Shown here piece by piece: positions 2,441 through 54,776 of a stretch of DNA of 64,000 nt. The notes under the pieces were generated by a model. It saw nothing but the letters and a program-made list of their open reading frames with translations. It was not told the origin of the DNA and did no database searches. The stretch is from Antedon mediterranea (taxonomy: Eukaryota; Animalia; Echinodermata), in NCBI RefSeq assembly GCF_964355755.1, contig NC_092675.1:5761812-5825811 (forward strand). The letters run 5' to 3'. A program made the position numbers and the translations under genes. Each line of letters starts with the position of its first letter. Position 1 is the first letter of the stretch.

Positions 2441-2479
2441 GATGGTCTATATATGATTGTACGACAAAATGAAGCACCA

Positions 2480-10270: not shown

Positions 10271-10283
10271 TTTTTCTGTATTA

Positions 10284-13436: not shown

Positions 13437-13550
13437 TTAGTTATCCGCTTAGTAGCGGATAACTCCTTGTAATCGTCCTGTTTCATCAAATTTTTTTCCT
13501 GTATTATTGGTTATCCGCACTTGGCGGATAACCCCTTGTTATTGTCAGGA

Positions 13551-13584
<34 letters not shown>

Positions 13585-17345: not shown

Positions 17346-17475
17346 TAGAGAGTCATAATGATTTTCAGCTTGTTTTTATCAAATTGTTTTTTTTTATTTG
17401 TATCCAGTTCTTTTTTCAATTCCTAAAAAGTTTTTACAGAAATATAATTCAAATACTTAAAAGGTATTGCTGCAA

Positions 17476-26817: not shown

Positions 26818-27375
26818 TATTCAAAATTTGTATAAGAAACAAACCTACAAATTTCTTCAAATTAATAAACTTTGTATTCTGCAATTCCAATGAATATTAC
26901 AATTAAGTTCTTTTTATCAATTCAAGAAATCCTTGCTAAAACAAAATAAATTATTAAAATTCCAAAAACAATTCAATTATATATTGTCTTTTGTTTCTAT
27001 GATTTTTAATTTTTGTCCTAATTTTTTTTCTTTTAATATATTTTTTTTTTGTCTGCTTTTTTTTCAATAGTTCAATTATACAATTTCACTGAATAAAAAA
27101 ATTAGCTTCTGCTTAATATTGGCTTAATGAAATACTATTTAATATTATTATAAATATTATTTTAAACTTCTCTTTAATACTTGGTTGTGCTAAATAGTTT
27201 CAGATTCTAATTTTTATTCTTTTTACAATTCTACTTAATAACAGATTCAAATAAAAGTGATCTTTAAATCTTCTTTAATTAATTCTTTTGTAATAAACTC
27301 TGTTTAATATTTATTTCTTTATAATAAGCTTCTGTTTTATTCTTCAAACTTTTGTTTGTATAATCAAACTTTAAC

Positions 27376-27740
27376 TTTACACTTTTGCTTTTGCAAAAAT
27401 GGTTTTGTAATAAACTTTTGTTTATTAGTTGTTTCCTTGTGATTAACTTCTGTTATCTTCAAGGTTTTACACTTTTGCTTTTGCAAAAATGGTTTTGTAA
27501 TAAACTTTTGTTTATTGGTTGTTTCCTTGTGATTAACTTCTGTTATCTTCAAGGTTTGACACTTTTGCTTTTGCAAAAATGGTTTTGTAATAAACTTTTG
27601 TTTATTAGTTGTTTCCTTGTGATTAACTTTTGTTATCTTCAAGGTTTTACACTTTTGCTTTTGCAAAAATGGTTTGTAATAAACTTTTGTTTATTAGTTT
27701 TTTCCTTGTGATAAACTTCTGTTTACTTCAAGGTTTTACT
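27376..27740. repeat. 90-bp tandem repeat, about 4 copies, upstream of the ORF
   Basis: ACACTTTTGCTTTTGCAAAAATGGTTTTGTAATAAAC... period 90; the minus strand reads as a 30-aa repeat. Confidence 0.9.
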
Positions 27741-27898
27741 GAATGTTTCAAAGATACTTTTAAAAAATGTTTAAAAAGAAATTGTGCATAAATATTAAAA
27801 TTCGGTAACCCCTCGTAGAAACTCTCTTTGGAGAGTGGATCTTTTTCTAAAGACCCGGATCTCTTCTGAGATCCAGTGGGTTTATATAAGACAGTCAC

Positions 27899-27930
27899 CT
27901 ACAATAAAAGAAAAAAAAAAGAGTTAGTTA
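27899..27930 (-). promoter_or_regulatory. Candidate 3' splice acceptor for the exon leading to the transposase ORF
   Basis: Minus strand AACTAAC (branch-like) TCTTTTTTTTTCTTTTATTGTAG|GTGACTG. Confidence 0.55.
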
Positions 27931-28479
27931 TTAATTTTAAGATACACTGTACAGTACTAAGAATTACAGTCAAACAATTATAAATTGAATCAGTAGATAA
28001 ATCAGTGTTTTTACAAATACCTAAATAATAATATACACATCCCCCCTGTGGAATGTAACATGATCTATTGGGCCTAGCAAAACAAATTAGGACCAACTCA
28101 TTACTAAATTCAGGATAGACCCATTTTATAAAATTGCAAATTTATGTCTGGAGAAACTGACCACCACATTTATGTTAAAAAGGATGATTGTCCCAAATTT
28201 TGAAGTAAATTGTGATAATATATTTGTGACTTTGGTTTATACAATATAAATAAATCACTATAGAAGATATTTTGACCTAAAAATATGTCAAAACTTCATT
28301 ACATGGAATGTGTCGGAAACAAATTCTTTCATAACAATTTCACCTTCAAAATTAATCTGAAAATAGGTTTAATTATTCAATGTTCTAATAAAATAGAATT
28401 TTATACACAAACATATTTGGTCACTCAGTATAGTCAATTTACAAACAACACATGTTTATCAATTATTGGAGGGCATAAA

Positions 28480-31400: not shown

Positions 31401-32446
31401 CGAGGTCTGAAAAATTAAGAAATTCCTCAAAATGACTTTGGGTATGAGACAGCTGGTTACGGCCTACATGTTGTCTCAATGCTAATTTCATTTATTATTT
31501 TATTCACAAACCATAAAATCTGAATGCTGTAAATGTTTCATAATAGAAAATGCCTACAAAATAACAGGCAACTGTTCACAAAGTAAGAAAAATATGTTTT
31601 CTCAATTTAACAGATAATCTACTAATACTCACAGCTGTAGCTAACACTGTATATTTTCTACAATCTAAAAACAACAAGGAAAACATTGATAATGGCAATA
31701 AACAACATTAACCCTTTTTCCAAATCAACATGCTTCTTAATTAATGTCTGAAAAATTAGGAAATTTCCTCAAAATGACTTTGGGTATGGGCCGGCTGATT
31801 AGGGCAAGCAACAGTTCACAAAGTAAGGAAAATATGTTTTCTCCATTTAACAGATAATCTACTAATACTCACAGCTGTAGCTGAAACTGTTAATTTTCTA
31901 CAATCTAAAAAAAACAAGGAAAAACATTGATAATGGCGATAAACAACATTAACACTTTTTCCAAATCAACAAGCTTCTTAATCAATGTCTGAAAAATTAA
32001 GAAATTTCCTCAAAATAACTTTGGGTATGGGCCGGCTGATTGGGGTCTACATGTTGTCTCAATACTACGTTCATTTAATATCTTATTCACAAACCATAAA
32101 ATCTGAATTATTTAAATGTTTCATAATATAAAATGCCTACAAAATAACAGGCAACAGTTCACAAAGCAAGGAAAATATGTTTTCTCCGTTTAACAAATAA
32201 TCTACTGATACTCACAGCTGTAGCTGAAACTGTATATTTTCTACAATCTAAAAAAAACAAGGAAAAACATTGATAATGGTAATAAACAACATTAACACTT
32301 TTTCCAAATCACCAAGCTTCTTAATCAATGTCTGAAAAATTAAGAAATTTCCTCAAAATAACTTATTTTATTCACAAACAATAAAATCTGAATTATGTAA
32401 ATGTTTCATAATAGAAAATGCCTACAAAATAACAGGCAACAGTTCA
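28480..32446. repeat. ~345-bp satellite-like tandem array, 12 units, inside Helentron copy 1
   Basis: ACTCACAGCT recurs at ~28524, 28875, 29220, 29568, 29912, 30255, 30599, 30944, 31286, 31627, 31867 (short unit) and 32210. Confidence 0.95.
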
Positions 32447-33100
32447 CTCCCAATCATGAAACCATTAATCATCTCTACAAACTATTTATTTAATATACAC
32501 TACTTACTATATTCTAGAGATACTAAAGTAGAAACAATTGTGTATCTCTTCCAACAGCTACAAGACAAAAATATATTATTATTATAAATATCAATACAAA
32601 TTGTGATCAAAACATCCACAATATTTGTAACAATGACAGGTGCGAAAGGGAACTGCGCTGACCTACGTCACTACTACTAGGACTACTGGAGTAAGCCTAG
32701 ACAACATGCTATTGTAAGAAGAACGAGTCATTGTTTCTTCTCTTTAAGAATTTATACAACTAAAAATTAAGCTAGAGTTAATATAATATAAGCCAGGTGC
32801 AAAAGGGAACTAGCGCCGTTTAGTCCTACTAAAAACAGCAAGTATTCTTGTACAGGCTAGGCCTAGGTACACTATGAATGTAGCAGACATATTTGTTCGT
32901 ATTTACCGGGACCGTATTTAACATACACATGGCCATACACGATTGTCGTGCTGCTACGAAAGCCATCGGGCTGAAAAACGTCACGACGTTTGCCGGCCGT
33001 CTCTGAAAGTCTGACATCCTTCCGTATATCTATAGTAGGCTAGGGTATCGTTAGTAAGTAGCAATTACAAAACAACTACAAATCAAACAATCCACATAAT

Positions 33101-33110
33101 TTCTTACCTA
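33101..33110 (-). promoter_or_regulatory. Candidate first-exon splice donor of the transposase transcript
   Basis: Minus strand TAG|GTAAGA at 33108/33107, about 300 bp inside the inferred element end. Confidence 0.4.
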
Positions 33111-33403
33111 TTTCTTATAGTATATCAATTCTCAACAAACTTGAGTTTGTTATTTATTTATTTAATCGTTGAAGTTCGACGATATAAAATGGTATTTGTA
33201 ACAATATTATCAGAGAGCGACTCTTAAAAACCAACATGGAGTTTACCAACGACATACCACAACACAACACGTTGTCGAATTTTCTCGAAATTCGGTTCAC
33301 CTACAGTATGGCATGCAATCCTCGCCAAAATTACCAATATTTAACGAATAACGAAAATTAGTTTTCACGTCAGACCTATTATATGTATTCTACGTGTATA
33401 TTA

Positions 33404-36400
33404 TTGGTTATCCGCACTTGGCGGATAACCTCTTGTTATTGTCAGGATCTTTTTTTTTTTTTTTTTTCGATATTCTTCTTTCTTTCCACGAATTTTGTTC
33501 GCAGCGTATCTCTAATTCTAGCCAACATAAGATTCTATAACTTTGTCATAAGATTGACCTGTAGCTCTAGATGTGCAAGAAACTTTTTTTTTCGAATTTC
33601 GAGTCGCGCAGCGTAAGTTACGCGCGATTTTATGAATTTCATTGATTGATCATAGAATAAAAACTAAAAATTGTTTTATATTGAAACTTTGTGAAAATTT
33701 AAGTGATATCATGCGCAAACTTTCTATGGATTAAAAATGGCAGGTTTCACAAAAAGTTACGTGCGCACGCGCGTTTGAAATTTCAAAATGCGAAAAATAA
33801 ATTTCTAATCAACTTTCTACGCGTTTCATGTCATTTTGAGCATTTCAAAAATTCCCACGCGTGCGCAATTTTTTTACGCGCGCGTGCACACGTAGCGCAA
33901 AAACATCCTTTTTTTGCTTGATTTTTGTTTTTTCAGCCTTTTCTAGTAAATTTATCAATTTTAAATCAATTTCGACTTAAAATCACGTCATACGAGCACG
34001 TAGAATTAAACAATTTGCGCCCATTTTTGATGAAAAATTTCAAAAATTCGTGAAAATTATGCCTTTCTTTAAAAAAGCATAGATTCTAAACTCCGTGGTG
34101 AACATTTTTAAAATTTCAGATTCTGGAAGTAAATGAGTTGCAGATATCAAATCATGCATTGACATGGCTAACCGGACATTTTGACGTCATCGTATGGCCA
34201 CTCGAATATAAAATATAGGATTTTTGTCACTTTCTCATAGCTCATCACATTTAATAGAGCGCATCTGCACTTATCCGTATTCCATTTCCCCCCATTTTGT
34301 TATATTGTCTAGGCCAATCAATTATCTTTCGCACAATCTACCATTTTTTAAATTGTGATGACGTCATCATGTCCAAAAGCGTCAATAACTTGGGTCCCTT
34401 ATTTTCACCTATTCTGCACTGTATGTAGTACGTATACAGAATACAGTGTATACCGTATATACTTTGACGTGACGCAAAATAGAGAGCGCACTAACATTTT
34501 TTCAATGGCATAATCGTTTTTCTGCGCGCAATATTCCAACGTATGACGTGCACGTGGCGTTTGCGCTGCGGATAACCTAACTCGTCCGTAGTGACGAGTT
34601 CAAATCTAGTATTTATTTCTTTCTTTCCACACTTCTCTCCCATTTTTTGTGGGCAGCGTATCTCTAATTCTAGCCAACATAAGATTGTATAACTTTGTCA
34701 TAAGATTGCCCTGTAGCTGTAGATGTGCAAGAAACTTTTTTTTTCAAATTTCGAGTCGCGCAGCGTAAGTTACGCGCGATTTTACGAATTTCAATGATTG
34801 ATCATAGATTAAAAACTAAAATTCATTTTGTATTGAAACTTGGTGAACATTTAAGTCATATAATGCGCAAACTTTCTATGGACTAAAAATGGCATGTTTT
34901 GGAAAAAGTTACGCGCGCACGCGCGTTTAAAACTTCAAAATGCGAAAAATCAATATCTGATCAACTTTCTACGCGTTTCATGTCATTTTGAGCATTTGAA
35001 AAATTCCCACGCTTGCGCAATTTTTTTACGCGCACGTGCGCACGTAGCGCAAAAACATCATTTTTTTGCTTGATTTTTGTTTTTCCTGTCTTTTTTAGAA
35101 AATTTACCAACTTTCAAACAATTTCGACTTAAAATCACGTCATACGAGCACGTAGAATTAAACAATTTACGCACATTTTTGATGAAAAAGTTCAAAAATT
35201 AGTCAAAATTATGCCTTTTTTTAAACAGTCATAAATTCTAAACTACGTGGTGAACTTTTTTGTAATTATATATTCTGGTAGTAGATGAGTTGCAGATATC
35301 AAATCATGCATCAATATGGCTAACCGGACATTGTGACGTCATCATATGGCCACTCGAATATAAAATATAGGATTTTTGTCTCTTTCCTCGTAGCTCGTCA
35401 CATTTAATATAGCGCATCTCCACTTATTTGTATTCCATTTCCCCCCATTTTTTTATGTTGTCTAGGTCTATCAATTATCTTTCGCACGATTCACCATTTT
35501 AAAAATTGTGATAACGTCATCATGTTCAAAAGCGTCAATAACTTTGGTCACTTATTTTCACCTATTCTGCACTGTATGTAGTACGTATACAGTATATAGT
35601 GTATACCGTATATACTCAGACGTGACGAAAAATAAAGAGCACGCTGAAATTGTTTCAATTACTTAATCGTTTTTCTGCGCGCAATATTTTAACGTACGAC
35701 GTGCACGTGGCCTTTGCGCTGCGGATAACCTAACTCGTCCGTAGTGACGAGTTCAAATCTAGTATTTATTTGTTTCCTTCCACCCTTCTCCCCCATTTTT
35801 TGTGCGCAGCGTATCTCTAATTCTGGCCAACATATGATTGTATAACTTTGTCAAAAGATTGCCCTGTAGCTGTAGATGTGCAAGAAACTCTTTTTTTCAA
35901 ATTTCGAGTCGCGCAGCGTAAGTTACGCGCGATTTTATGAATTTCAATGATTGATCATAGAATAAAAACTAAAAGTCGTTTTGTATTGAAACTTGGTGAA
36001 CATTTAAGTCATATAATGCGCAAACTTTCTATGGATTAAAAATGGCATGTTTCATAAAAAGTTACGCGCGCACGCGTATTTAAAATTTCAAAATGCGAAA
36101 AATCAATATCTAATCAACTTTCTACGCGTTTCATGTCATTTTGAGCATTTCAAAAATTCCCACGCGTGCGCAATTGTTTTACGCGCACGTGCGCACGTAG
36201 CGCAAAAACATCATTTTTTCTATTGATTTTTGTTTTTCTTTTCTTTTTTAGAAAATTTACCAGCTTTCAAACAATTTCGACTTAAAATCACGTCATACGA
36301 GCACGTAGAATTAAACAATTTACGCGCATTTTTAATGAAAAAGTTCAAAAATTTGTCAAAATTATGTCTTTTTTTAAACAGTCATAGATTCTAAACTACG

Positions 36401-36915
36401 TGGTGAACTTTTTTATAATTACATATTATGGTAGTAGATGAGTTGCAGATATCAAATAATGCATCAATATGGCTAACCGGACATTCTGACGTCATCGTAT
36501 GGCCACTCGAATATAAAATATAGGATTTTTGTCTCTTTCCTCGTAGCTCGTCACATTTAATATAGCGCATCTCCACTTATTTGTATTCCATTTCCCCCCA
36601 TTTTTTTATGTTGTCTAGGTCTATCAATTACCTTTCGCACGATTTACCATTTTCAAAATTGTAATGACGTCATCATGTTCAAAAGCGTCAATAACTTTGG
36701 TCACTTATTTTCACCTATTCTGCACTGTATGTAGTACGTATACAGTATATAGCGTATACCGTATATACTCAGACGTGACGAAAAATAGAGAGCACACTGA
36801 AATTGTTTCAATGACTTAATCGTTTTTCTGCGCGCAATATTTTAATGTATGACGTGCACGTGGCCTTTGCGCTGCGGATAACCTAACTCGTCCGTAGTGA
36901 CGAGTTCAAATCTAG
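33404..36915 (+). mobile_element. HINE (33404-34609) followed by two headless HINE bodies (34610-35762, 35763-36915)
   Basis: One GGTTATCCGC head and three tails GCGGATAACCTAACTCGTCCGTAGTGACGAGTTCAAATCTAG. Confidence 0.9.
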
Positions 36916-36974
36916 TTAGACGTTGCGTTTTCGCGGATAACCTAACTCGTCCGCAGTGACGAGTTCAAATCTAG
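36916..36974 (+). mobile_element. Orphan Helentron 3' terminus
   Basis: TTAGACGTTGCGTTTTCGCGGATAACCTAACTCGTCCGCAGTGACGAGTTCAAATCTAG with no body. Confidence 0.85.
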
Positions 36975-39900
36975 TTGGTTATCCGCACTTGGCGGATAAC
37001 CCCTTGTTATTGTCAGGATCTTTTTTTTTTTTTTTTTTTTTTTTCTATGTTATTCTTCTTTCTTTCCCCGAATTTTGTTCGCAGCACATCTCTATCTTGT
37101 GGCCAACATAAGATTGTATAACTTTGTCATAAGGTTGACCTATAGCTGTAGATGTGCAGCCAAGCTTTTGGACGATTTTGGAGTTGCGCAGCGTAAGTTA
37201 CGCGCGATTTTATGAATTTCAATGATTGATCATAGAATAAAAACTAAAAGTTGTTTTGTATTGAAACTTTGTGAAAATTTAAGTGAGATCATGCGCAAAC
37301 TTTCTATGGATTAAAAATGGCATGTTTCACAAAAAGTTACGCGCGCACGCGCGTTTGAAATTTCAAAATGCGAAAAATCAATTTCTAATCAACTTTCTAT
37401 GCGTTTCATGTCATTTTGAGCATTTCAAAAATTCCCACACGTGCGCAATTTTTTTACGCGCGCGTGCGCACGTAGCGCAAAAACATCTTTTTTTTGCTTG
37501 ATTTTTGTTTTTTCAGCCTTTTCTAGTACATTTACCAATTTTCAATCAATTTCGACTTAAAATCACGTCATACGAGCACGTAGAATTGAACAATTTGCGC
37601 GCGTTTTTGAAGAAAAAGTTCAAAAATTCGTCAAAATTATGCCTTTTTTAAAACAGTCATAGATTCTAAACTCCGAGGTGAAAATATTTAAAATTTCAGA
37701 TTCTGGAAGTAGATGAGTTGTTTTTCTCGAATCATGCATTGATATGGCTAACCAGACATTGTGACGTCATCGTATGGCCACCCGAATATAAAATATAGGA
37801 TTTTTTTCTCTTTCGTCATAGCTCGTCAATTTAATAGAGCGCATCTCTACTTATCCTTATTCCATTTCACTCAATTTTTTTATATTGTCTAGATCAATCA
37901 ATTACCTTTCGCATGATCCACCATTTTAAAAATTGTGATGACGTCATCATATTCAAATGCGTCAATAACTTTGGTCACTTATTTTCACCTATTCTGCACT
38001 GTATGTAGTACGTATACAGTATATAGTGTTATACCGTATATACTTAGACGCGACGCAACATAGAGAGCGCACTAACATTTTTCAATGCCATAATCGTTTT
38101 ATTTTTTTGCGCGCACTATTCTAACGTATGACGTGCACGTGGCTTTTGCACTGCGGATAACCTAACTCGTCCGTAGTGACGAGTTCAAATCTAGTTTTTT
38201 TTTTCTTTATTCTTCTTTCTTTCCACGAATTTTGTTCGCAGCGTATCTCTAATTCTAGCCAACATATGATTCTATATTCTTTGTTATAAGATTGGCCTGT
38301 AGATGTAGATGTGCATGACATTTTTTTTTTCGAATTTCGAGTCGCGCAGCGTAAGTTACGCGCGATTTTATGAATTTCAATGATTGATCTTTGAATAAAA
38401 ACTAAAAGTCATTTTGTATTGCGCGATTTTATGAATTTCAATGATTGATCTTTGAATAAAAACTAAAAGTCATTTTGTATTGAAACTTGGTGAAAATTTA
38501 AGTCATAATATTCTCCAACTTTCTATGGATTAAAAATTGCATGTTTGACAGAAAATTATGCGCGCCCGCGCGTTTAAAATTTCAAAATGCGTAAAATCAA
38601 TTTCTAATCAACTTTCTACGCGTTTCAGGTCATTTTGAGCATTTCAAAAATTCCCACGCGTGCGCAATTTTTTTACGCGCGCGTGCGCATTTAGCGCAAA
38701 AACATATTTTTTTTGCTTAATTTTTGTTTTTTCAGCCTTTTCTAGTAAATTTACCAATTTTCAATGGATTTTGACTTAAAATCACGTCATACGAGCACGT
38801 AGAATTGAACAATTTGCGCGCGTTTTTGATGAAAAGTTCAAAAATTTGTGAAAATTATGCCTTTTTTTAAAAAGTCATAGATTCTAAACTACGTGGTGAA
38901 CTTTTTTTAAATTACATATTGTGGAAGTAGATGAGTTGTAGATATCGAATCATGCATCAATATAGCTAACTGTACATTGTGACGTCATCGTATGGCCACT
39001 CAAATATAAAATATAGGATTTTTTTCTCTTTCGTATAGCTCATCACATTTAATAGAGCGCATCTCCACTTATCCGTATTCCATTGCCCTCCATTTCTTTA
39101 TATTGTCTAAGTCAATCAATTATCTTTCGCATGATTCATTAGTTTAAAAATTGTGATGACGTCATCATGTCCAAAAGCGTCAATAACTTTGGTCACTAAC
39201 TTTCACCTATTCTGCACTGTATGTAGTACGTATAGAGTATAATATAGTGTATACCGTATATACTTAGACGTGACGCAAAATAGAGAGAAAACTAAAATTG
39301 TTTCAATGGCATCATCGTTTATCTGCGCGCAATATTCTAACGTACGACGTGCACGTGGATTTTGCGCTGCGGATAACCTAACTCGTCCGTAGTGACGAGT
39401 TCAAATCTAGTTGGTTATCCGCTCTTGGCGGATAACCTCTTGTTATTGTCAGGATCTTTTTTTTTTTTTTCTATGTTATTCTTCTTTCTTTCCCAAAATT
39501 TTGTGTCACGTGTATCTCAAATTCTGATCAACATTACATCGTATAACTTTGTCAGAAGATTAACCTCTATGTGTAGAAGTGCAGGACAGCTCGTTTTTTT
39601 ACTTTAGAGTCGCGCAGCGTAAGCTACGCGCGATTTTATGAATTTCGCGTATTTAACATAGACTAAAAAGCAAAAGTCATTTTGTAATGACACTTGGTGA
39701 ACATTTAAGTCATATCAAGGGCAAACTTTCTATGGATTAAAAATGGCATGTTTGACATAAAGTTACGCGCGCACGCGCGTTTAAAATTTCAAATTGCGAA
39801 AAATTCATTTCTAATCAACTTTCTACGCGTTTCAGGTCATTTTGAGCATTTCAAAAATTCCCAGGCGTGCGCATATTTTTTACGCGCGCGTGCGCACGTA

Positions 39901-40620
39901 GTGCAAAAACGTCTTTTTTTTGCTTGATTTTTGTTTTTTCAGCCTTTTCTAGTACATTTACCAATTTTCAATCAATTTCGACTTAAAATCACGTCATACG
40001 AGCACGTAGAATTGAACAATTTGCGCGCGTTTTTGATGAAAAAGTTCAAAAATTTGTGAAAATTATGCCTTTTTTTAAAAAGTCATAGATTCTAAACTCC
40101 GAGGTGAAAATATTTAAAATTTCAGATTCTGGAAGTAGATGAGTTGTTTTTCTCGAATCATGCATTGATATGGCTAACCAGACATTGTGACGTCATCGTA
40201 TGGCCACCCGAATATAAAATATAGGATTTTTTTCTCTTTCGTCATAGCTCGTCAATTTAATAGAGCGCATCTCTACTTATCCTTATTCCATTTCACTCAA
40301 TTTTTTTATATTGTCTAGATCAATCAATTACCTTTCGCATGATCCACCATTTTAAAAATTGTGATGACGTCATCATGTTCAAATGCGTCAATAACTTTGG
40401 TCTCTTATTTTCACCTATTCTGCACTGTATGTAGTACGTATACAGTATATAGTGTTATACCGTATATACTTAGACGCGACGCAACATAGAGAGCGCACTA
40501 ACATTTTTCAATGCCATAATCGTTTTATTTTTTTGCGCGCACTATTCTAACGTATGACGTGCACGTGGCTTTTGCGCTGCGGATAACCTAACTCGTCCGT
40601 AGTGACGAGTTCAAATCTAG
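36975..40620 (+). mobile_element. Head-to-tail HINE units 36975-38194, 38195-39410 (headless) and 39411-40620
   Basis: Heads, tails and CTAG|TT junctions visible; ~1.2-kb units. Confidence 0.9.
38361..38482. repeat. ~61-bp local tandem duplication within a HINE body
   Basis: CGCGATTTTATGAATTTCAATGATTGATCTTTGAATAAAAACTAAAAGTCATTTTGTATTG twice. Confidence 0.9.
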
Positions 40621-43024
40621 TTAGGCTATCGCTCTCTGTAGAGCGATAGCCTATTGTTATTGTCAAAGATTTCATTTTTTCTGCTCATTTTTTGTGCGCA
40701 GCAGATCTCTAAATTGGCAATAGCTGTTATGTTGTAACTTGGCCAGCAGATGCACGTATATATGTAGTTGTGCAACAAACTTTGGTTTAATGAAAATATG
40801 GTCGCGTAGCGTAACTACGCGCGATTTTCTGAAATTCTTAGATTGACTATAACTTGAAAACCAATAGCTATTTTTAAATACCACTTGACACACGTATGCT
40901 TCATGTCAAGGGTCATCTTCCTGTATCATCAGCAACATTTTGAACATTGGTCAAATCGCGCGTACGCGCGCTTTGAAAGTTAAAAATGCTCAAAATCAAT
41001 TTCTAATCAACTTTCTACACGTTTCAGGACATTTTAAGCATTTCACATTTTTCAAAAAAAATTGCGTTGCGCGCGCGCTTTTGCGCACTTCGCTCGTACG
41101 CAGCCTAGAAAGCCCGTTTTTGCGCTTGATTATTGTTTTTCATAGTTTTATGATATATTTCTTTCATATTTGATGAATTATGAATGCAAAATAATGACAC
41201 ACGTGCACGTCAAACTTTAAAAATCGTGCGCTTGAAAATTGGTAATTTTATGCTAATTTGTGTAAAAATATGCCTATTTTGAATCGATTATAGCTCTCCA
41301 GGATGTCTGGTGACCCCCAATTTTTTTAACTTAATATGTAAGCAGATATGTTGTAGATATGAATTCATGCAAAATGTTTACCTCTGGGATGTTGTGACGT
41401 CATCGTATGGCCACACAAATGTAAAATATAGGGATTTTGTCTCTTTCGACACAGTTCGTGACATTCAATAGAGCGCATACCGCGTAAACGTTATCAATTT
41501 TCTTCCAGTTTTCAATATTCTATTACTAAAACAATTCCTCTTTAGACTTATGAACTTTTTTTTTTTATTTGAAAAGGTTATCATTTTCAAACAATTGAAT
41601 AAACGTGAGTGGTGTAAAATAAAAAATAACCGTCAACTAAACCGTTTACAATGCTAATACCGTCAACTGTTGACACTTATTAAACGATTTTGATGTATTC
41701 CAGCTGTTCGTTACAATCGTTGTAGTGCAGCCTATTGTAGACTAAGCATAATAAATAACATGTGCGTGTTACGATGCGTTGGGCGATAGCCTAACTCGTC
41801 AAAGTGACGAGTTCAAATCTAGTTAGGCTATCGCTCTCTGTAGAGCGATAGCCTATTGTTATTGTCACAAATTTCATTTTTTCTGCTCAATTTTTGTGCG
41901 CAGCAGATCTCAAAAACGGCGGTAGCAGTTATGTTGTAACTTGGCCAGCAGATGCACGTATATATGTAGTTGTGCAACAAACTTTGGTTTAATGAAAATA
42001 TGGTCGCGTAGCGTAACTACGCGCGATTTTCTGAAATTCTTAGATTGACTATAACTTGAAAACCAATAGCTATTTTTAAATACCACTTGACACACGTATG
42101 CTTCATGTCAAGGGTCATCTTCCTGTATCATCAGCAAAATTTTGAACATTGGTCAAATCGCGCGTACGCGCGCTTTGAAAGTTAAAAATGCTCAAAATCA
42201 ATTTCTAATCAACTTTCTACACGTTTCAGGACATTTTAAGCATTTCACATTTTTCAAAAAAATTTGCGTTGCGCGCGCGCTATTGCGCACTTCGCTCGTA
42301 CGCAGCCTAGAAAGCCCGTTTTTGCGCTTGATTATTGTTTTTCATAGTTTTATGATATATTTCTTTCATATTTGATGAATTATGAATTGAAATTAATGAC
42401 ACACGTGCACGTCAAACTTTAAAAATCGTGCGCTTGAAAATTGGTAATTTTATGCAAATTTGTGTAAAAATATGCCTATTTTGAATCGATTATAGCTCTC
42501 CAGGATGTCTGGTGACCCCCAATTTTTTTAACCTAATATGTAAGCAGATATATTGTAGATATGAATTCATGCAAAATGTTTACCTCTGGGCTGTTGTGAC
42601 GTCATCGTATGGCCACACAAATGTCAAATATAGGGATTTTGTCTCTTTCGACACAGTTCGTCACATTCAATAGAGCGCATACCGCGTAAACGTTATCAAT
42701 TTTCTTCCAATTTTCAATATTTTATTACTAAAATAATTCCTTTTTAGACTTATGAACTTTTTTTTTTAATTTGAAGAGGTCATCATTTTCAAACAATTGA
42801 ATAAACGTGAGTGGTGTAAAATAAAAAATAACCGTCAACTAAACCGTTTACAATGCTAATACCGTCAACTGTTGACACTTATTAAACGATTTTGATGTAT
42901 TCCAGCTGTTCTTTACAATCGTTGTAGTGCAGCCTATTGTAGACTAAGCATAATAAATAACATGTGCGTGTTACGATGCGTTGGGCGATAGCCTAACTCG
43001 TCAACGTGACGAGTTCAAATCTAG
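40621..43024 (+). mobile_element. Two tandem HINEs of the divergent AGGCTATCGC type (40621-41822, 41823-43024)
   Basis: Head TTAGGCTATCGCTCTCTGTAGAGCGATAGCCTA; tail GCGATAGCCTAACTCGTCAA(A/C)GTGACGAGTTCAAATCTAG; both 1202 bp, similar but not identical. Confidence 0.9.
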
Positions 43025-44348
43025 TTGGTTATCCGCACTTGGCGGATAACCTCTTGTTATTGTCAGGATCTTTTTTTTTTTTTTTTTTTTTTTTTTTCTA
43101 TGTTATTCTTCTTTCTTTCCCTGAATTTTGTTGGCAGCGTATCTCTAATTCTGGCAAACAGAAGATTGTGTAACTTTTTCATAAGATTGACCTGTAGCTG
43201 TAGATGTGCAGGACGTTTCGTTTTTTGACTTTAGAGTCGCGCAGCGTAAGTTACGCGCGATTTTGTGAATTTTGCGTATTTAACATAGATTGAAAACCAA
43301 AAAGCAATTTTAATTGAAACTTGGCAAAAGTCTAATTTATATCATGCGCTAACTTTCTATGGATTTAAAATGGCACTTTTCCAAAAAGTTACGCGCGCAC
43401 GCGGGTTTAAAATTTCAAAATGCGAAAAATCAATATCTAATCAACTTTCTACGCGTTTCATGTCATTTTAAGCATTTCAAAAATTCCCACGCGTGCGCAA
43501 TTTTTTTACGCGCACGTGCGCACGTAGCGCAAAAACATCATTTTTTTGCTTGATTTTTGTTTTTCATGTCTTTTTTAGAAAATTTACCAACTTTCAAACA
43601 ATTTCGACTAAAAATCACGTCATACGAGCACGTAGAATTAAACAATTTACGCGCATTTTTGATGAAAAAGTTCAAAAATTAGTCAAAATTATGCCTTTTT
43701 TTAAACAGTCATAAATTCTAAACTACGTGGTGAACTTTTTTATAATTACATATTCTGGTAGTAGATGAGTTGCAGATATCAAATCATGCATCAATATGGC
43801 TAACCGGACAATGTGACGTCATCATATGGCCACTCGAATATAAAATATAGGATTTTTTTCTCTTTCCTCGTAGCTCGTCACATTTAATATAGCGCATCTC
43901 CACTTATTTGTATTCCATTTCCCCCCATTTTTTTTATGTTGTCTAGGTCTATCAATTATCTTTCGCACGATTCACCATTTTAAAAATTGTGATGACGTCA
44001 TCATGTTCAAAAGCGTCAATAACTTTGGTCACTTATTTTCACCTATTCTGCACTGTATGTAGTACGTATACAGTATATAGTGTATACCGTATATACTCAG
44101 ACGTGACGAAAAATAAAGAGCACGCTGAAATTGTTTCAATTACTTAATCGTTTTTCTGCGCGCAATGTTTTAACGTATGACGTGCACGTGGCCTTTGCGC
44201 TGCGGATAACCTAACTCGTCCGTAGTGACGAGTTCAAATCTAGTTGGTTATCCGCACTTGGCGGATAACCCCTTGTTATTGTCAGGATCTTTTTTTTTTT
44301 CTTTTTGGTTATCCGCACTTGGCGGATAACCCCTTGTTATTGTCAGGA

Positions 44349-44381
<33 letters not shown>

Positions 44382-47300
44382 CTATGTTATTCTTCTTTCT
44401 TTCCCCGAATTTTGTTCGCAGCACATCTCTATCTTGTGGCCAACATAAGATTGTATAACTTTGTCATAAGGTTGACCTATAGCTGTAGATGTGCAGCCAA
44501 GCTTTTGGACGATTTTGGAGTTGCGCAGCGTAAGTTACGCGCGATTTTATGAATTTCAATGATTGATCATAGAATAAAAACTAAAAGTTGTTTTGTATTG
44601 AAACTTTGTGAAAATTTAAGTGAGATCATGCGCAAACTTTCTATGGATTAAAAATGGCATGTTTCACAAAAAGTTACGCGCGCACGCGCGTTTGAAATTT
44701 CAAAATGCGAAAAATCAATTTCTAATCAACTTTCTATGCGTTTCATGTCATTTTGAGCATTTCAAAAATTCCCACACGTGCGCAATTTTTTTACGCGCGC
44801 GTGCGCACGTAGCGCAAAAACATCTTTTTTTTGCTTGATTTTTGTTTTTTCAGCCTTTTCTAGTACATTTACCAATTTTCAATCAATTTCGACTTAAAAT
44901 CACGTCATACGAGCACGTAGAATTGAACAATTTGCGCGCGTTTTTGAAGAAAAAGTTCAAAAATTCGTCAAAATTATGCCTTTTTTAAAACAGTCATAGA
45001 TTCTAAACTCCGAGGTGAAAATATTTAAAATTTCAGATTCTGGAAGTAGATGAGTTGTTTTTCTCGAATCATGCATTGATATGGCTAACCAGACATTGTG
45101 ACGTCATCGTATGGCCACCCGAATATAAAATATAGGATTTTTTTCTCTTTCGTCATAGCTCGTCAATTTAATAGAGCGCATCTCTACTTATCCTTATTCC
45201 ATTTCACTCAATTTTTTTATATTGTCTAGATCAATCAATTACCTTTCGCATGATCCACCATTTTAAAAATTGTGATGACGTCATCATATTCAAATGCGTC
45301 AATAACTTTGGTCACTTATTTTCACCTATTCTGCACTGTATGTAGTACGTATACAGTATATAGTGTTATACCGTATATACTTAGACGCGACGCAACATAG
45401 AGAGCGCACTAACATTTTTCAATGCCATAATCGTTTTATTTTTTTGCGCGCACTATTCTAACGTATGACGTGCACGTGGCTTTTGCACTGCGGATAACCT
45501 AACTCGTCCGTAGTGACGAGTTCAAATCTAGTTGGTTATCCGCACTTGGCGGATAACCCCTTGTTATTGTCAGGATCTTTTTTTTTTTTTTTTTTTTTTT
45601 TTTTTCTATGTTATTCTTCTTTCTTTCCCCGAATTTTGTTCGCAGCACATCTCTATCTTGTGGCCAACATAAGATTGTATAACTTTGTCATAAGGTTGAC
45701 CTATAGCTGTAGATGTGCAGCCAAGCTTTTGGACGATTTTGGAGTTGCGCAGCGTAAGTTACGCGCAATTTCATGAATTTCAATGATTGATCATAGAATA
45801 AAAACTAAAAGTTGTTTTGTATTGAAACTTTGTGAAAATTTAAGTGAGATCATGCGCAAACTTTCTATGGATTAAAAATGGCATGTTTCATAAAAAGTTA
45901 CGCGCGCACGCGCGTTTGAAATTTCAAAATGCGAAAAATCAATTTCTAATCAACTTTCTATGCGTTTCATGTCATTTTGAGCATTTCAAAAATTCCCACG
46001 CGTGCGCAATTTTTTTACGCGCGCGTGCGCACGTAGCGCAAAAACATCTTTTTTTTGCTTGATTTTTGTTTTTTCAGCCTTTTCTAGTATATTTATGAAT
46101 TTTCAATCAATTTCGACTCAAAATCACGTCACACGAGCACGTAGAATTGGATAATTTGCGTGTGTTTTTGATGAAAAACTTCAAAAAATCGTCAAAATTA
46201 GACCTTTTTTTAAACAGTCATAAATTCTAAACTACGTGGTGAACATTTTTAAAATTACATATTCTGGAAGTAGATGAGTTGTTTTTCTCGAATCATGCAT
46301 TGATATGGCTAACCGGACATTGTGACATCATCGTATGGCCACCCGAATATAAAATATAGGATTTTTTTCTCTTTCATCATAGCTCGTCAAATTTAATAGA
46401 GCGCATCTCCACTTATCCGTATTCCATTTCACTCAATTTTTTTATATTGTCTAGATCAATCAATTATCTTTCGCATGATTCACCATTTTTAAAATTGTGA
46501 TGACGTCATCATGTTCAAATGCGTCAATAACTTTGGTCACTTATTTTCACCTATTCTGCACTGTATGTAGTACGTATACAGTATATAGTGTATACCGTAC
46601 ACACTTAGACGCGACACAAAATAGAGGGCTCACTAACATTTTTTCAATGGCATAATCGTTTTTCTGCGCGCAATATTCTAACTTAGGTGTCATGCGCGTG
46701 GGTTTTGCGATGCGGATAACCTAACTCGTCCGTAGTGACGAGTTCAAATCTAGTTGGTTATCCGCACTTGGCGGATAACCCCTTGTTATTGTCAGGATCT
46801 TTTTTTTATTTTTCTTTTTCTCTTTTTTTTTCTATTTTCTTCTTTCTTTCCACAAATTTTGTTGCTAGTGTATCTCTAAATCTTCTTAACATAACATTGT
46901 ATAACTTTATCAGAAGATTGACCTCTATCTGAAGATGTCGTAATAAGGTTTTCAGTCGTGTCCGAGTTGCGCAGCGTAAGTTACGCGCGATTTTATGAAT
47001 TTCAATGATTGATCATAGAATAAAACCTAAAAGTTTGTTTGTATTGAAACTTGGTGAAAATTTAAGTCATATAATGCGCAAACTTTCTATGGATTAAAAA
47101 TTGCATGCTTCACAAAAAGTTACGCGCGCACGCGCGTTTGAAATTTCAAAATGCGAAAAATCAATTTCTAATCAACTTTCTACGCGTTTCATGTCATTTT
47201 GAGCATTTCAAAAATTCCCACGCGTGCGCAATTTTTTTACGCGCGCGTGCGCACGTAGCGCAAAAACATCATTTTTTTGCTTGATTTTTGTTTTTCCTGT

Positions 47301-50300
47301 CTTTTTTAGTAAATTTACCAACTTTCAAACAATTTCAACTTAAAATCACGTCATACGAGCACGTAGAATTAAACAATTTACGCGCATTTTTTATGAAAAA
47401 GTTCAAAAATTTGTCAAAATTATGCCTTTTTTTAAACAGTCATAGATTCTAAACTACGTGGTGAACTTTTTTAAAATTACATATTCTGAATGTAGATGAG
47501 TTGTAGATATCGAATCATGCATCGATTTGGCTAACCGGACATTGTGACGTCATCGTATGGCCACACGAATATCAAATATAGGATTTTTGTCTCTTTCGTC
47601 ATTGCTCATCACATTTAATAGAGCGCATCTCCACTTATCCGTATTCCATTTTCCCCCATTTTTATATATTGTCTAGGTCAATCAATTATCTTTCGATTGA
47701 TTTACCATTTTTAAAATTGTTATGACGTCATCATGTCCAAAAGCGTCAATAACTTTGGTCACTTATTTTCACCTATTCTACACTGTATGTAGTACGTATA
47801 CAGTATAATAGTGTATACCGTATATACTTAAACGTGACACAAAATAGAGGGCGCACTAACATTTTTTTCAGTGGCATAATCGTTTTTCTGCACGCAATAT
47901 TCTAACGTATGACGTGCACGTGGCTTTTGCGCTGCGGATAACCTAACTCGTCCGTAGTGACGAGTTCAAATCTAGTTGGTTATCCGCACTTGGCGGATAA
48001 CCTCTTGTTATTGTCAGGATCTTTTTTTTTTTTTTCTTCTATCTTATTCTTCTTTCTTTCCCAGAATTTTGTCCACAGCGTATCTCTATCTTCTGGCCCA
48101 CATAAGATTGTATAACTTTGTCATAAGATTGACCTATAGCTGTAGATGTGCAGCCAAGCTTTTGGACGATTACGGAGTAGCGCAGCGTAAGTTACGCGCG
48201 ATTTTATGAATTTCAATGATTGATCATAGATTAAAAACCAAAAGTCATTTTGCATTGAAACTTAGTGAAAATTTAAGTCATATCATGCGCAAACTTTCTA
48301 TGGATTAAAAATGGCATGTTTCATAAAAAGTTACGCGCGCACGAGCGTTTAAAATTTCAAAATGCGTAAAATCAATTTCTAATCAACTTTCTACGCGTTT
48401 CAGGTCAGTTTGAGCATTTCAAAAATTCCCACGCGTGCGCAGTTTTTTTACGCGCGCGTGCGCACTTAGCGCAAAAACATCTTTTTTTTGCTTGATTTTT
48501 GTTTTCTCAGCTTTTTCTAGTAAATTTACCAATTTTCAATCAATTTCGACTTAAAATCACGTCATACGAGCACGTAGAATTGAACAATTTGCGCGCGTTT
48601 TTGATGAAAAAGGTAAAAAATTCGTCAAAATTATGCCTTTTTTAAAACAGTCATAGATTGTAAACTACGTGGTGAACTTTTTTAAAATTACATATTCTTG
48701 AAGATAATTAATTGTAGATTTCGAATCATGCATCGATATGGCTAACCGGACCTTATGACGTCATCGTATGGCCACTCGAATATAAAATATAGGATTTTTG
48801 TCTCTTTCGCATAGCTCATCACATTTAATAGAGCGCATCTCCACTTATCCGTATTCCATTGCCCTCCATTTTTTTATATTGTCTAGGCCAATCAATTATC
48901 TTTAGCATAATCTACCATTTTTTAAATTGTGATGACGTCATCATGTCCAAAAGCGTCAATAACTTGGGTCCCTTATTTTCACCTATTCTGCTCTGTATGT
49001 AGTACGTATACAGTATATAGTGTATACCGTATATACTTTGACGTGACACAAAATAGAGAGCGCAATAACATTTTTTCAATGGCATAATCGTTTTTTTGCG
49101 CGCAATATTCTAACGTACGACGTGCACGTGGCGTTTGCGCTGCGGATAACCTAACTCGTCCGAAGTGACGAGTTCAAGTCTAGTTGGTTATCCGCACTTG
49201 GCGGATAACCCCTTGTTATTGTCAGGATCTTTTTTTTTTTTTTTTTTTTTTTTCTATGTTATTCTTCTTTCTTTCCCCGAATTTTGTTCGCAGCACATCT
49301 CTATCTTGTGGCCAACATAAGATTGTATAACTTTGTCATAAGGTTGAGCTATAGCTGTAGATGTGCAGCCAAGCTTTTGGACGATTTTGGAGTTGCGCAG
49401 CGTAAGTTACGCGCGATTTCATGAATTTCAATGATTGATCATAGAATAAAAACTAAAAGTTGTTTTGTATTGAAACTTTGTGAAAATTTAAGTGAGATCA
49501 TGCGCAAACTTTCTATGGATTAAAAATGGCATGTTTCACAAAAAGTTACGCGCGCACGCGCGTTTGAAATTTCAAAATGCGAAAAATCAATTTCTAATCA
49601 ACTTTCTATGCGTTTCATGTCATTTTGAGCATTTCAAAAATTCCCACGCGTGCGCAATTTTTTTACGCGCGCGTGCGCACGTAGCGCAAAAACATCTTTT
49701 TTTTGCTTGATTTTTGTTTTTTCAGCCTTTTCTAGTAAATTTATGAATTTTCAATCAATTTCGACTTAAAATCACGTCACACGAGCACGTAGAATTGGAT
49801 AATTTGCGCGTGTTTTTGATGAAAAACTTCAAAAAATCGTCAAAATTAGACCTTTTTTTAAACAGTCATAAATTCTAAACTACGTGGTGAACTTTTTTAA
49901 AATTACATATTCTGGAAGTAGATGAGTTGTTTTTCTCGAATCATGCATTGATATGGCTAACCGGACATTGTGACATCATCGTATGGCCACCCGAATATAA
50001 AATATAGGATTTTTTCTCTTTCGTCATAGCTCGTCAAATTTAATAGAGCGCATCTCCACTTATCCGTATTCCATTTCACTCAATTTTTTTATATTGTCTA
50101 GATCAATCAATTATCTTTCGCATGATTTACCATTTTTAAAATTGTGATGACGTCATCATGTTCAAATGCGTCAATAACTTTGGTCACTTATTTTCACCTA
50201 TTCTGCACTGTATGTAGTACGTATACAGTATATAGTGTATACCGTACACACTTAGACGCGACACAAAATAGAGGGCTCACTAACATTTTTTCAATGGCAA

Positions 50301-50400
50301 TATCGTTTTTCTGCGCGCAATATTCTAACTTAGGTGTCATGCGCGTGGGTTTTGCGATGCGGATAACCTAACTCGTCCGTAGTGACGAGTTCAAATCTAG
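43025..50400 (+). mobile_element. Head-to-tail HINE units 43025-44243, orphan head 44244-44304, 44305-45531, 45532-46753, 46754-47975, 47976-49183, 49184-50400
   Basis: Every junction reads TCTAG|TTGGTTATCCGC. Confidence 0.92.
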
Positions 50401-53400
50401 TTGGTTATCCGCTCTTGGCGGATAACCCCTTGTTATTGTCAGGATCTTTTTTTTTTTTTTCTTTTTTTTCTATTTTCTTCTTTCTTTCCAAGAATTTTGT
50501 TGCACGCATATCTCTAATTCTGGCTAACATAAGATTGTAAAACTTTGTCATAAGATTGACCTATATCTGTAGATGTGCAAGAAACTTAGATTTTTTATTT
50601 TCGAGTTGCGCAGCGTAAGTTACGCGCAATTTTATGAATTTCAATGATTGATCATAGATTAAAAACCAAAAGTCATTTTGTATTGAAACTTGGTGAAAAT
50701 TTAAGTCATATCAAGCTCAAACTTTCTATGGATTAAAAATGGCATGTTGCGCAAAACGTTACGCGTGCACGCGCGTTTAAAATTTTAAATTGCGAAAATT
50801 CAACTTCTAATCAACTTTCTACGCGTTTCATGTCATTTTGAGCTTTACAAAAATTCCCACGCGTGCGCAATTTTTTTACGCGCGCGTGCGCACGTAGCTC
50901 AAAAACAATTTTTTTTTGCTTGATTTTTGTTCTTCCAGCCTTTTCTAGTAATTTCACCAATTTTTATACAATTTCGACTTAATATCACGTCATACGAGCA
51001 CGTAGAAATTGACAATTTGCGCGCATTTTTGAAAAAAAAGTTCAGAAATTCGTCAAAATTATGCCTTTTTTTAAACAGTCATAAATTCTAAACTACGTGG
51101 TGAACTTTTTTTAAATTACATATTCTGGAAGTAGATGAGTTGTGTTTATCGAATTATGCATTAATATGGCTAACCAAACATTATAACGTCATCGTATGGC
51201 CACTCAAATATAAAATATAGAATTTTTTTCTCTTTCGTCATAGCTTGTCACATTTAATAGAGCGCATCTTTACTTATCCGTATTCCATTTCCCTCAATTT
51301 TTTTGTATTATCTAGGTCAATCAATTATCTTTTACATGATTTACCATTTTTTAAATTGTGATAACGTCATCATGTCCAAAAGCGTCAAAAACTTTGGTCA
51401 CTTATTTTCACCTATTCTGAACTGTATGTAGTACGTATACAGTATAATAGTGTATACTGTATACTTAGACGTGACGCAAGCTAGAGAGCGCACTAAAAAT
51501 TTTTCAATGGTATAAGCGTTTTTTCTGTGTGCAATATTCTAACGTATGACGTGCACGTGGCGTTTGCACTTCGGAAAACCTGAATCAAATTCGATTATTT
51601 TTGTCTTTTTTCTTTTTTTTTTCTGGTACGAGTGAAATTAAAAAATGCGCCAAATTAATTTCTATTTAATTTGCGTACATTTCAGGTCACTTTGAGCATT
51701 TCAAAATTATCTAAATTGTTTGCGGTTTGCGCACGCACTTGTACGCACAGCTCGTACAAAGCGTAGAAAAATTTTTTTTGCAATTGATTTTTTTGGTCAT
51801 AGGCCTACGTTCACGATTTCTTTCATTTTCATGCATTTTTATTGCAAATTAACGATGCACTTGCATGTTAAACTTTATAAATCGTGTGCTAAAGAATGGG
51901 TAATATAATACGAACTTGTGCAAAAATATACTTATTTTGATTCAGTTCTAGCTTCTTAGGATGGCAGGTTACCCATTTTTTTAAATGTATTATAGAAGCT
52001 AAATCAATTAATGTACAATTTGCACCTAAAGGATGTTCTGGCGTCACCATATGGCCACTCGAATTTTAATGATAGATTTTGTATTAGTTAATCCCATTTA
52101 ATAGAGCGCATCGCGCTAATGCGTTTTAATGTTCTTGACAAATCAATTTTCTTTTACACATGAGTTAACAAAGTGACCCACGTGATTAAAACTTAAGGAA
52201 ATTATTGAATTGTATATATGAAGTCTTATACAAATTTTGTCTATCTGATTTCATGACGTCATTATATGGCCAGTTGAATTTAAAAAGTCAGATTTTCATC
52301 TCTTTCGTAAAAATTAATCGTGTTTAAAATAGAGCGCATCTCAAGTTAACGTTCCCAAAATTTTTCAAATTTGTATTAATGTAATTATTTAGATAATTAA
52401 ATTATATAACATATACAGTGTATTCTGTAATATGCTGTCATAAAAATTTTCCTATGGGATGCTGCGAGGTGATGCTATGGGGTCATGCTATTAGGTCATG
52501 GTATGGCCAGTAATTGGAAAGGTAGGATTTTTATTTGTTTTTTGGCATAGTTCATCACATATTACGCATCTCAGTTGTACGTGCCAAATTTAATTATTAT
52601 TATTTATATTATATTATTTAATTATGTTATCGTTGAGATGAAATATTTTCAGAAAATAAACATACTTTTATGTTTCATTTTGATGACATCAAACAATTTT
52701 TTCTCCCGTAATTTCAGTTCTAAACACAATAATATATTACAGTACAACTAGTTACAGAATTAATTATGTGTGAATAATAATAGCAATTTATTGTCTCCTC
52801 TGGTCTATGTATTGATCCAATGGAATCTCAGTTACAGTGAAACTTACTCCAATAGATATAAAAGATAAAATAGATAAAACTAATATCACCACACCATAAC
52901 TGTTAAAAATAATCTTTTATTTCAAACAAATTGAAGAAAATTTACAATAAGTATAAAATAATTTATATGTATTTATAAAAGCTTTCATTGGTTATTGCAA
53001 ATTGTACCAAATTGTCAACATATAGTAGCCTTTTTATACTATACAGTAGTTTATTTCGTGATCAGTAATTTTACTTTACATTATATACATGTTAGTTTGT
53101 CAGTTGTAGATTCATTACACTTTTATTTTTTGATTTATTTATAGAAGATTCTTATTTTTTTAACAATCATTAATATAATTGATAATTTAATCATTTGCCG
53201 CGTTTAGACAATAGTTATGAAAGAGCGAATGACTGCATTACTGACTGCCTAAAAATCCGGATCCTATTATAATTGAAGAGATGAAACCATTCTATTGAAC
53301 ACCTAAAAACCAAAACAAACAAATTTTTGCAAATGAGCAAATTTATTTTATTTATTTATTTTATTTTATTCAGTTAACAACCAACAGCAATGAAACCGCC

Positions 53401-53429
53401 ACTAACAGGTTGAATCTAAATTACTGTAT

Positions 53430-54450
53430 TAGCATTGGTAATCGTATAAAACAAAACGTATTTTCTTCTTCTGTTAAATGTAACTTTATTTTTAACATTA
53501 CTTGAATACCGGTAGACATAGCATATTCAAATTCAGAACAATATTTATAATAATATATCTCACTTAAAAACAAGATTAAAATGTATTTACTCACCAGATA
53601 TTGTTTCTCCTATACAGGAGAATGACATGGCTTGAAGTTACAGATTATTCACTGCCACTCGTGCATAGATAATAAATCGATTATTTTTGCAAATGAGTAA
53701 ATTACTGTATTAGTAATTTAATGTGGTCCTGGATATATAGAAAAAATAATATAAAAAACAATTATACAACTGAAATTATGTATAGACCTAATGAAGTATT
53801 GGCAATCGTATAACACAAAACGTATTTTCTTCTTCTGTAAAATGTAACTTTTTATTTTTAACATTACTTAAATACCGGTAGATATTGAAAGATTATTATT
53901 TGCACAGATTGCAACATTACATATTCAAATTCAAAACAACATTTATAATAATATAACTCACTTAAAAACAAGATTAAAATGTGTTTACTCACCAGATATT
54001 GTTTCTCATATACAGGAGAATGACATGGGTTGAAGTTACAGATTATTCGCTGCCTCTCTTGCATAGATAATAAATTGATTATTCTTCTTGCAAATGAGTA
54101 AATTACTGTATTAGTAATTTCATGTAGACCTGGATAGATAAAAAAAAAATAATATAAAAAACAATTATACAACTGAAATTATGTATAGACCTAATGAAGT
54201 ATTGGTAATCGTCTAAAAAAAAACTTTCTTCTTCAGTAAAATGTAACTTTCATTTTTAACATTACTTGAATACCGGAAATATTGAAAGATTATTATGTGC
54301 ACAGATTTACAACATTGCATATTCAAATTCTGAACAATATTTATAATAATATAACTCACATAAAAACAAGATTAAGATTAAGATTTCGCCTATACAGGAG
54401 AATGAAATGGGTTGAAGTTACAGATTATTCGCTGCCCCTCGTACATAGAG
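53430..54450. repeat. ~395-bp tandem repeat (about 2.5-3 copies), homolog of 16190-17345
   Basis: TATACAGGAGAATGA.ATGG.TTGAAGTTACAGATTATTC at ~53611, ~54010 and ~54391. Confidence 0.9.
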
Positions 54451-54776
54451 AGTCAAATGATTTTCAGCTTGTTTTTATCAAATTGGTTTTTTTTTTCTTG
54501 ATTTGTTTCCAGTTTTGTTTTCAATTCTTAAAAAGTTTTTATAGTATTCTGCTGGATGATTTTCCTGTTTATTATATATTAATATATTTTTGACGTTCTT
54601 GACCACGCTTGCACATAATTATAGTGATAGGCCTAATAGTATTTCATTTTGGTTTTTCAGTTTTTCTCCATTTCATAATGTAAGAATGTAATGAACAAGT
54701 TGAAATAATAATGCTATGCAAGTTCAGTTTCTATTTACTAAAATATAATTCAAATACTTAAAAACCATTGATGCAA

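Follow-up and report, generated by a model that had tools for sequence, protein, structure and literature searches.

The stretch analysed here (the window) comprises 64,000 nucleotides of Antedon mediterranea contig NC_092675.1 (assembly GCF_964355755.1, positions 5,761,812 to 5,825,811) and is AT-rich, with 32% GC. Positions 33404-51590 are occupied by an array of 15 co-oriented HINE units of 1153-1227 bp each (about 1.2 kb), with no unrelated DNA between them, and two autonomous Helentrons, A1 and A2, lie in the same chain. The array was probably built by repeated insertion at or just behind the ends of resident elements. The features are as follows, with units of family a numbered a01 to a15 and those of family B as B07 and B08.

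5098-6454, minus strand: solitary older family-B copy, inverted and outside the chain, 81-85% identical to B07
7032-14796, plus strand: left nest with 1.5-kb relatives L1-L4, unit M and orphan heads
13507-36974, plus strand: inferred extent of Helentron A1, from the sequence parse and the empty allele
17476-26820, minus strand: A1 open reading frame (ORF), 3114 aa, with Herpes_teg_N, OTU, DUF6570, Rep (HUH), PIF1 helicase and AP-type endonuclease
33404-36915, plus strand: block a01-a03 in the A1 3' arm, with a headed unit (33404-34609) and two headless units (34610-35762 and 35763-36915)
36916-36974, plus strand: 59-bp tail-only piece with subterminal inverted repeat (subTIR), hairpin and CTAG, likely the true right end of A1
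36975-38194, plus strand: unit a04, the same as a10 except for the poly-T length
38195-39410, plus strand: headless unit a05 with an internal 61-bp duplication, likely the body of the orphan head at 44244
39411-40620, plus strand: mosaic unit a06, diverged from a04 by 24% in the 5' part and 2.5% in the 3' part
40621-43024, plus strand: family-B dimer B07 and B08, 97.5% identical, with exact joints to family-a ends on both sides
43025-44243, plus strand: mosaic unit a09, diverged from a02 by 21% in the 5' part and 1.9% in the 3' part
44244-44304, plus strand: orphan head with subTIR, inverted repeat (IR) and T-tract, cut within its own T-tract
44305-45531, plus strand: unit a10, twin of a04
45532-50400, plus strand: units a11, a12, a13 and a14; a11 and a14, 99.1% identical, lie on either side of two unlike units
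50401-51590, plus strand: unit a15, hairpin and CTAG lost, continuing into the left arm of A2
51591-54776: A2 left arm, degenerate family-B and 1.5-kb-family sequence
54777-63998, minus strand: A2 ORF, at least 3073 aa, open at the window edge, catalytic motifs intact, 93% aa identity to A1

From 5' to 3', a unit consists of TT, a subTIR and an IR, a T-tract, the body, and then a second subTIR, a hairpin and CTAG. The subTIR is about 10-11 bp long in the array units and its 3' copy lies 40-42 nt from the unit end. Having subTIRs at both ends, a 5' IR, a 3' palindrome and no long ORF (none of at least 150 aa was found inside the units), the units are assigned to HINE/DINE-1. Thirteen units, 85-100% alike, form family a, and two form family B, which is 74% identical to family a and has a different subTIR, AGGCTATCGC. 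Three units are headless (starting at 34610, 35763 and 38195), and the array also holds the 59-bp tail-only piece at 36916-36974 and the 61-bp head-only piece at 44244-44304, neither of which the original prediction had listed. The junction TCTAG^TT(G/A)G (^ marks the joint) was exact at all 12 positions tested, 11 in the array and one at 13436, and the tail motif matched 17 times in the window versus 0 in 100 shuffles. The original prediction had described 15 units without intervening host DNA, these same 11 junctions and that at 13436, a distinct terminal family interleaved at 40621-43024 and two autonomous copies, and each of these statements was borne out. It had read the array as a plain head-to-tail chain, whereas the chain is partly nested, with a01-a03 sitting inside A1.

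Both autonomous ORFs run antisense to the units and are free of internal stops. Pfam Helitron_like_N, PIF1 and Exo_endo_phos were detected in both with intact motifs. The C-terminal AP-type endonuclease that defines the EN-bearing Helentrons (HLE2) is present in both RepHel ORFs, and so is the HLE2 marker DUF6570, with E values of 1e-19 and 6.8e-20 (PMC11417382). Among 625 homologues the top five were A. mediterranea proteins of 81-90% identity, which points to a crinoid (feather star) as the likely host; sea-urchin proteins were among the next, and the nearest homologues had the same domain set. The 1614-aa catalytic cores of A1 and A2 differ by 87 synonymous and 87 non-synonymous codons, a hint of purifying selection, and both elements could be functional. 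The HINE ends are common to the autonomous partner, as the A1 arm runs into a family-a subTIR tail in other copies. An independent opposite-strand element around the antisense ORF was rejected, because no subTIR-like or terminal-hairpin-like ends flank the ORF: the inverted repeats at 14600-17600, 26700-33500 and 51400-54900 included none of this kind except the known head at 33406. A RepHel profile scan gave 80 loci with best-segment identities of at most 41%, mostly helicase-only, and was not used.

Several repeats were observed within the autonomous elements. The N-terminal half of RepHel contains an in-frame 54-bp (18-aa) repeat in about 7 copies per ORF (22673-23068 and 59957-60341, both on the minus strand). 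Tandem arrays occupy parts of the arms at 16214-17336, 27376-27739, 28477-31805 and 53522-54375, with periods of 386-398, 90 and 344 bp, the last in 9.7 copies; these are possible satellite seeds. The terminators are broken in both units just upstream of the autonomous bodies, as if read-through had been retained: at 14768-14796 the hairpin has mismatches and CTAG is absent, and at 51570-51590 the hairpin is lost.

Helentron A1 was parsed into a head (13507-13581), the nested unit M (13582-14796), a body (14797-33403), the nested a01-a03 and a tail (36916-36974). The identity of 36916-36974 as the A1 end was predicted before contigs of several sequencing runs were compared with window positions 33050-33449. 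Runs X6, X7 and X9 represent one sample, likely not the assembled individual since they contain 0.55-0.63 of the array's words; run X1 carries another organism code and has a share of 0.22. In each of X6, X7 and X9, two contigs pass 33403 into CACGTTGCG...GCGGATAACC, the homologue of 36916-36974. As these contigs continue from 33403 to the tail without units, a01-a03, with one head and three tails, is a single insertion inside the A1 3' arm. Its three units were likely joined at another site and then moved as one. The block predates the insertion, because a02 and a03 differ by 4.5% but the A1 arm differs from the X6, X7 and X9 contigs at only 1/264 and 0/62 positions, and the headless a02 and a03 would be unable to start transposition and therefore likely moved together with a01. 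TTA stands at both block edges (33401-33403 and 36916-36918) and once in the empty allele, so that the extra TTA is possibly a 3-bp target duplication, unusual for Helentrons, or a flank carried from the donor. The left nest has a comparable structure of orphan heads (7032, 7093, 10284, 13437 and 13507) and headless remainders (10271, 8752, 11908 and 14797), four pairs of which rejoin into normal head sequence.

The window holds 22 heads: 12 come after CTAG, 7 are placed within another head, 1 is in the A1 arm and 2 are in host-like DNA. Nowhere in the window does a family member interrupt a unit body or the interior of A1. All eight self-insertions outside the junctions were located within about 75 nt of an end and on the same strand, four in T-tracts and four at TTA^T. 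TTA^T sites fall near ends in 28 of 230 cases in 11 intact units, and all four insertions at such sites were near ends (about 2e-4). Taken over all sites, the insertion point was T^T for the four in T-tracts, A^T for a further four and G^T at the joints. Nine of the 12 exact joints bring together intact ends that are unlike, and two of these nine connect the two families (a^B and B^a). Joints between two family-a units can fold the subTIR stem while a^B and B^a joints cannot, and because this pairing is absent the latter are unlikely to be the circle joint of one element. Circle closure could account for 3 of the 12, the joint between the unit at 43025 and the orphan head, a13^a14 and B07^B08. 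With unlike intact ends at 9 of 12 joints, heterologous joints are most simply explained by repeated insertion at resident ends.

Joints of both types were recovered from the sequencing runs. In run X1 the tail^head contig had a depth of 84.8 versus 2-3.8 for heads with unique flanks, and head-polyT-head joints recurred in contigs of X6, X7 and X9. The depth, summed over contigs and not equal to a copy number, suggests very many HINE copies and about 10 autonomous arms. The tail pattern matched 0 stretches in metagenome contigs. The evidence comes from contigs of these runs and the window sequence, and no contig spans the whole array.

The relationships between units were examined next to their order. 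Adjacent family-a units had a mean identity of 90.0% compared with 89.6% in shuffled order (P=0.25; 13 family-a units, the B dimer left out). Twins a04 and a10 had 0/1220 mismatches while their flanks differed at 23/292 and 28/232 positions, and twins a11 and a14 had 11/1217 mismatches with flanks differing at 24/294 and 32/288. Twin identity thus stops at the unit ends, beyond which the flanks are 8-12% different. The 1176-bp exact match of a04 and a10 ends 2 nt past CTAG (CTAG^TT), and of 29 exact matches of at least 110 bp only 2 cross a junction beyond the shared TT, by 5 and 12 bp. No higher-order period was found in the array. The headless a05 sits after a04 and the orphan head sits before the twin a10, as a permuted circle would predict, and the stretch from a04 to a10 has the appearance of a composite that was circularly permuted and is terminally redundant. 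The same terminal redundancy was found in a11-a12-a13-a14, without a confirming split element. The original prediction had stated that neighbours differ, which holds for most pairs but fails for two adjacent ones. It set the array apart from concatemers of near-identical neighbours and named periodic unequal-crossover blocks among the outcomes that would refute it. Given the adjacency value, the non-adjacent twins and the lack of periodic identity tracts crossing unit junctions, the array is neither a single concatemer nor an unequal-crossover satellite.

The best reading is likely end-directed self-insertion combined with composite rolling-circle moves and recombination. More specifically, we consider it fairly probable that the nest was built by repeated insertion, of multi-unit blocks in some cases, at or just behind resident ends and on the same strand. 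In rolling-circle chemistry, RepHel cuts 5' of a T at both the target and the terminator, and the same cuts would apply here. A resident tail (subTIR, hairpin, CTAG and then T) would be the normal termination substrate of RepHel and could serve as its target, and the T-rich stretch behind a resident head would be a good target as well; because both could serve, the site would stay usable after each insertion. Skipped terminators would yield composite circles which may re-insert as blocks such as a01-a03. The order of a04 to a10 would arise if replication of a circle made up of the head, a04, the a05 body, a06, B07, B08 and a09 started at the inner head and went slightly beyond one full round. 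The mosaic units may be products of recombination or template switching between neighbours. The original prediction of elements added one at a time is therefore wrong for part of the array, where a01-a03 is a single block by the empty allele and a04 to a10 is composite-like. Its self-targeted insertion at resident termini is retained as the simplest source of the nine unlike exact joints, but many insertions are nested just behind a head instead. Its safe harbour is at most conjectural, and solitary copies exist as well.

More tentatively, and with rather less than even probability, RepHel may use resident subTIRs as landing marks and make its cut some 40-50 nt 3' of a GCGGATAAC-type motif on the sense strand. 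The spacings were 40-42 nt at tails and 34, 37, 44, 50, 50 and 52 nt at head sites, plus one ambiguous T-tract; the agreement of heads and tails is loose only and the arm site at 33403 does not fit. If such a ruler exists, insertions would fall at CTAG^T (40-42 nt) and behind the inverted repeat of the head (34-52 nt). Non-autonomous units of several families would then behave as cassettes: they would be added, leave again as composite circles, change their order by permutation and re-insert. The locus would be a cassette array with site-specific insertion, operated by a eukaryotic HUH transposase.

A number of observations weigh against end-directed insertion. All counts made in the window are inflated, because the stretch was picked for its array. 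Of the T8 windows in units, 114 of 128 (89%) are near ends and on the same strand; the poly-T preference already known would therefore be enough to explain the four T-tract insertions and part of the co-orientation. Among the loose ends listed, heads flanked by unique AT-rich sequence were common, so end targeting is not exclusive and HINE copies also occur outside arrays. In two of the 14 adjacent pairs (a02/a03, 95.5%, and B07/B08, 97.5%) the neighbours are nearest kin, as would be expected of concatemers, and mosaicism is strong, with a04/a06 and a02/a09 at the top of 91 pairs. These points lend themselves to other explanations. A passive hot spot, in which elements prefer T-rich sites, the best T-tract happens to be in their own head, and joints result when circles close or nested composites bypass an end, without any recognition of resident ends, would draw on the T8 distribution, on the TT/poly-T preference (PMC4067079) and the self-insertion yielding multiple 5' ends (PMC5148889) that are already known, and on the three junctions that could be circle joints. 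It is nevertheless unlikely, as the other nine joints, among them a^B and B^a, connect complete ends of unlike elements and leave no headless remainder, CTAG^TT is not a T-tract and the arm insertion at 33403 lies outside any T-tract.

The mosaics would also fit if circular copies integrated into resident copies by single-crossover homologous recombination, which would give co-orientation, exact joints and chimeras without end targeting. Divergence of the mosaic pairs drops from 21-24% in the 5' part to 2-2.5% in the 3' part, the trees of the two unit halves disagree, and the a04 to a10 order would also fit a composite circle crossing over with an identical resident. Yet no adjacent reciprocal chimera pair was seen in the array, past the diagnostic loop the exact match between family-B and family-a ends is only about 20 bases long, and the nested A^T or T^T insertions and the empty allele are signatures of transposition, which makes this explanation improbable. 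Satellite-like growth from one ancestral concatemer by unequal crossover and gene conversion appears very improbable given the adjacency value, the two short junction crossings and the missing higher-order period; in its favour are the two nearest-kin pairs and alleles that are rare in the runs and common to array units, a hint only, as the six positions were chosen post hoc and the runs are of another individual. Least credible of all is an assembly path threaded through near-identical repeats, especially a04 and a10. The 1176-bp exact repeat does flank the permuted block, no contig covers the array and the 33403-33404 join was absent, with no join of 33403 to a head, among the contigs listed. 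However, each nested insertion retains two complementary edges, independent runs also contain tail^head and head^head joints, and a threaded path would still require the a09-to-head and a04-to-a05 joints. The orphan head at 44244 could go back to slippage duplication and the headless a05 to a microhomology deletion, but two unrelated events would be needed beside an identical twin pair.

Outside the Helentron chain, the window contains a large imperfect inverted duplication at 702-4486, which resembles a foldback or terminal-inverted-repeat element. Its arms pair as 702-1416 with 4486-3756 (86%) and 1427-2367 with 3533-2558 (81%), and both carry 154-155-bp tandem repeats. A 162-aa frame within it (1262-1750, minus strand) and a 170-aa open frame at 186-698 (plus strand) had no Pfam match. 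About 540 bp at 5345-5884 is inserted in the solitary family-B copy, and its broken frames resemble the C-terminal end of a LINE reverse transcriptase.

Co-oriented units at a regenerated site are also found in integron cassette arrays and in the self-targeting retroelements DIRS-1, Zepp and HeT-A/TART, and hairpin-forming single-strand joints are part of the analogy, which is an analogy only. The present locus differs from these in its HUH RepHel, having neither tyrosine recombinase nor reverse transcriptase and no cargo genes; Pfam detected no integrase domain in the long ORFs, and the array is thus not integron-like in this respect. Helentrons and their HINE/DINE-1 derivatives (HLE2 subgroup b) are described with a 5' subTIR and IR, a 3' hairpin and T-rich targets (PMC4067079, PMC11417382). 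The array units agree in their 5' subTIR and IR, 3' subTIR at 40-42 nt from the end and 3' hairpin, although their subTIR is slightly shorter than the reported 11-15 bp, and A1 and A2 agree with the HLE2 RepHel in EN, OTU, Herpes_teg_N and DUF6570. ORFs antisense to the termini are reported for Helentron-Da-40 and FoHeli4/5 (PMC4067079, PMC5148889, PMC11417382). Unlike HINE/DINE-1, the elements have fixed 5'-TT/3'-CTAG ends, described for the proto-Helentron, as well as several A^T targets and an 18-kb mixed-family chain with exact joints.

Short duplicated heads in the Fusarium FoHeli elements were ascribed to self-insertion, together with composite mobilisation, and one FoHeli4 sits 2 bp from the 5' end of another (PMC5148889); HelenXT233 carries two left ends (PMC11417382). 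In the available text the FoHeli cases are few and the copies partial, whereas here both split halves, an empty allele and at least 9 heterologous exact joints are present at one locus. Tandem Helitrons or circle junctions are reported from bat, plant centromeres and the D. pseudoobscura Y (PMC5876387, PMC4067079, bioRxiv 2021.06.02.446622) and share precise CTAG-to-5' joints with this array (PMC5876387). They were explained there as concatemers or terminator bypass; the neighbours here are mostly unlike and the twins non-adjacent. McGurk and Barbash attributed tandems to double insertion by repeated use of a preferred site and not to rolling-circle replication (PMC5932611), a case resting on target-site duplications in the joint, while the joints here lack a spacer and the elements target their own ends. 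Published precedents thus exist for tandem Helitrons, for self-insertion that yields several 5' ends, for unlike Helitrons side by side and for double insertion (PMC4067079, PMC5148889, PMC5932611, bioRxiv 2021.06.02.446622). The literature searched yielded no array that combines mixed families, exact joints and permuted composites; the primary bat, maize and plant-centromere studies and supplements such as the FoHeli termini table may hold similar cases. Mixed exact-joint arrays are not described in the available parts of bioRxiv 2025.11.06.686955, PMC12001565 and PMC7492417.

Target choice and joining in the Helentron group have so far been inferred rather than shown. This family has two transposases that appear intact, a young block with an empty allele and exact unlike joints, so that the choice between resident ends and T-tracts becomes testable at this locus, which also suggests a route from dispersed elements to long mixed arrays without unequal crossover. 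For annotation, tail-only pieces, headless units and double heads may belong to nested elements. In comparison with the systems above, the locus is a well-resolved variant of known Helentron behaviour, and the precision of its ends across families has no counterpart in the literature searched.

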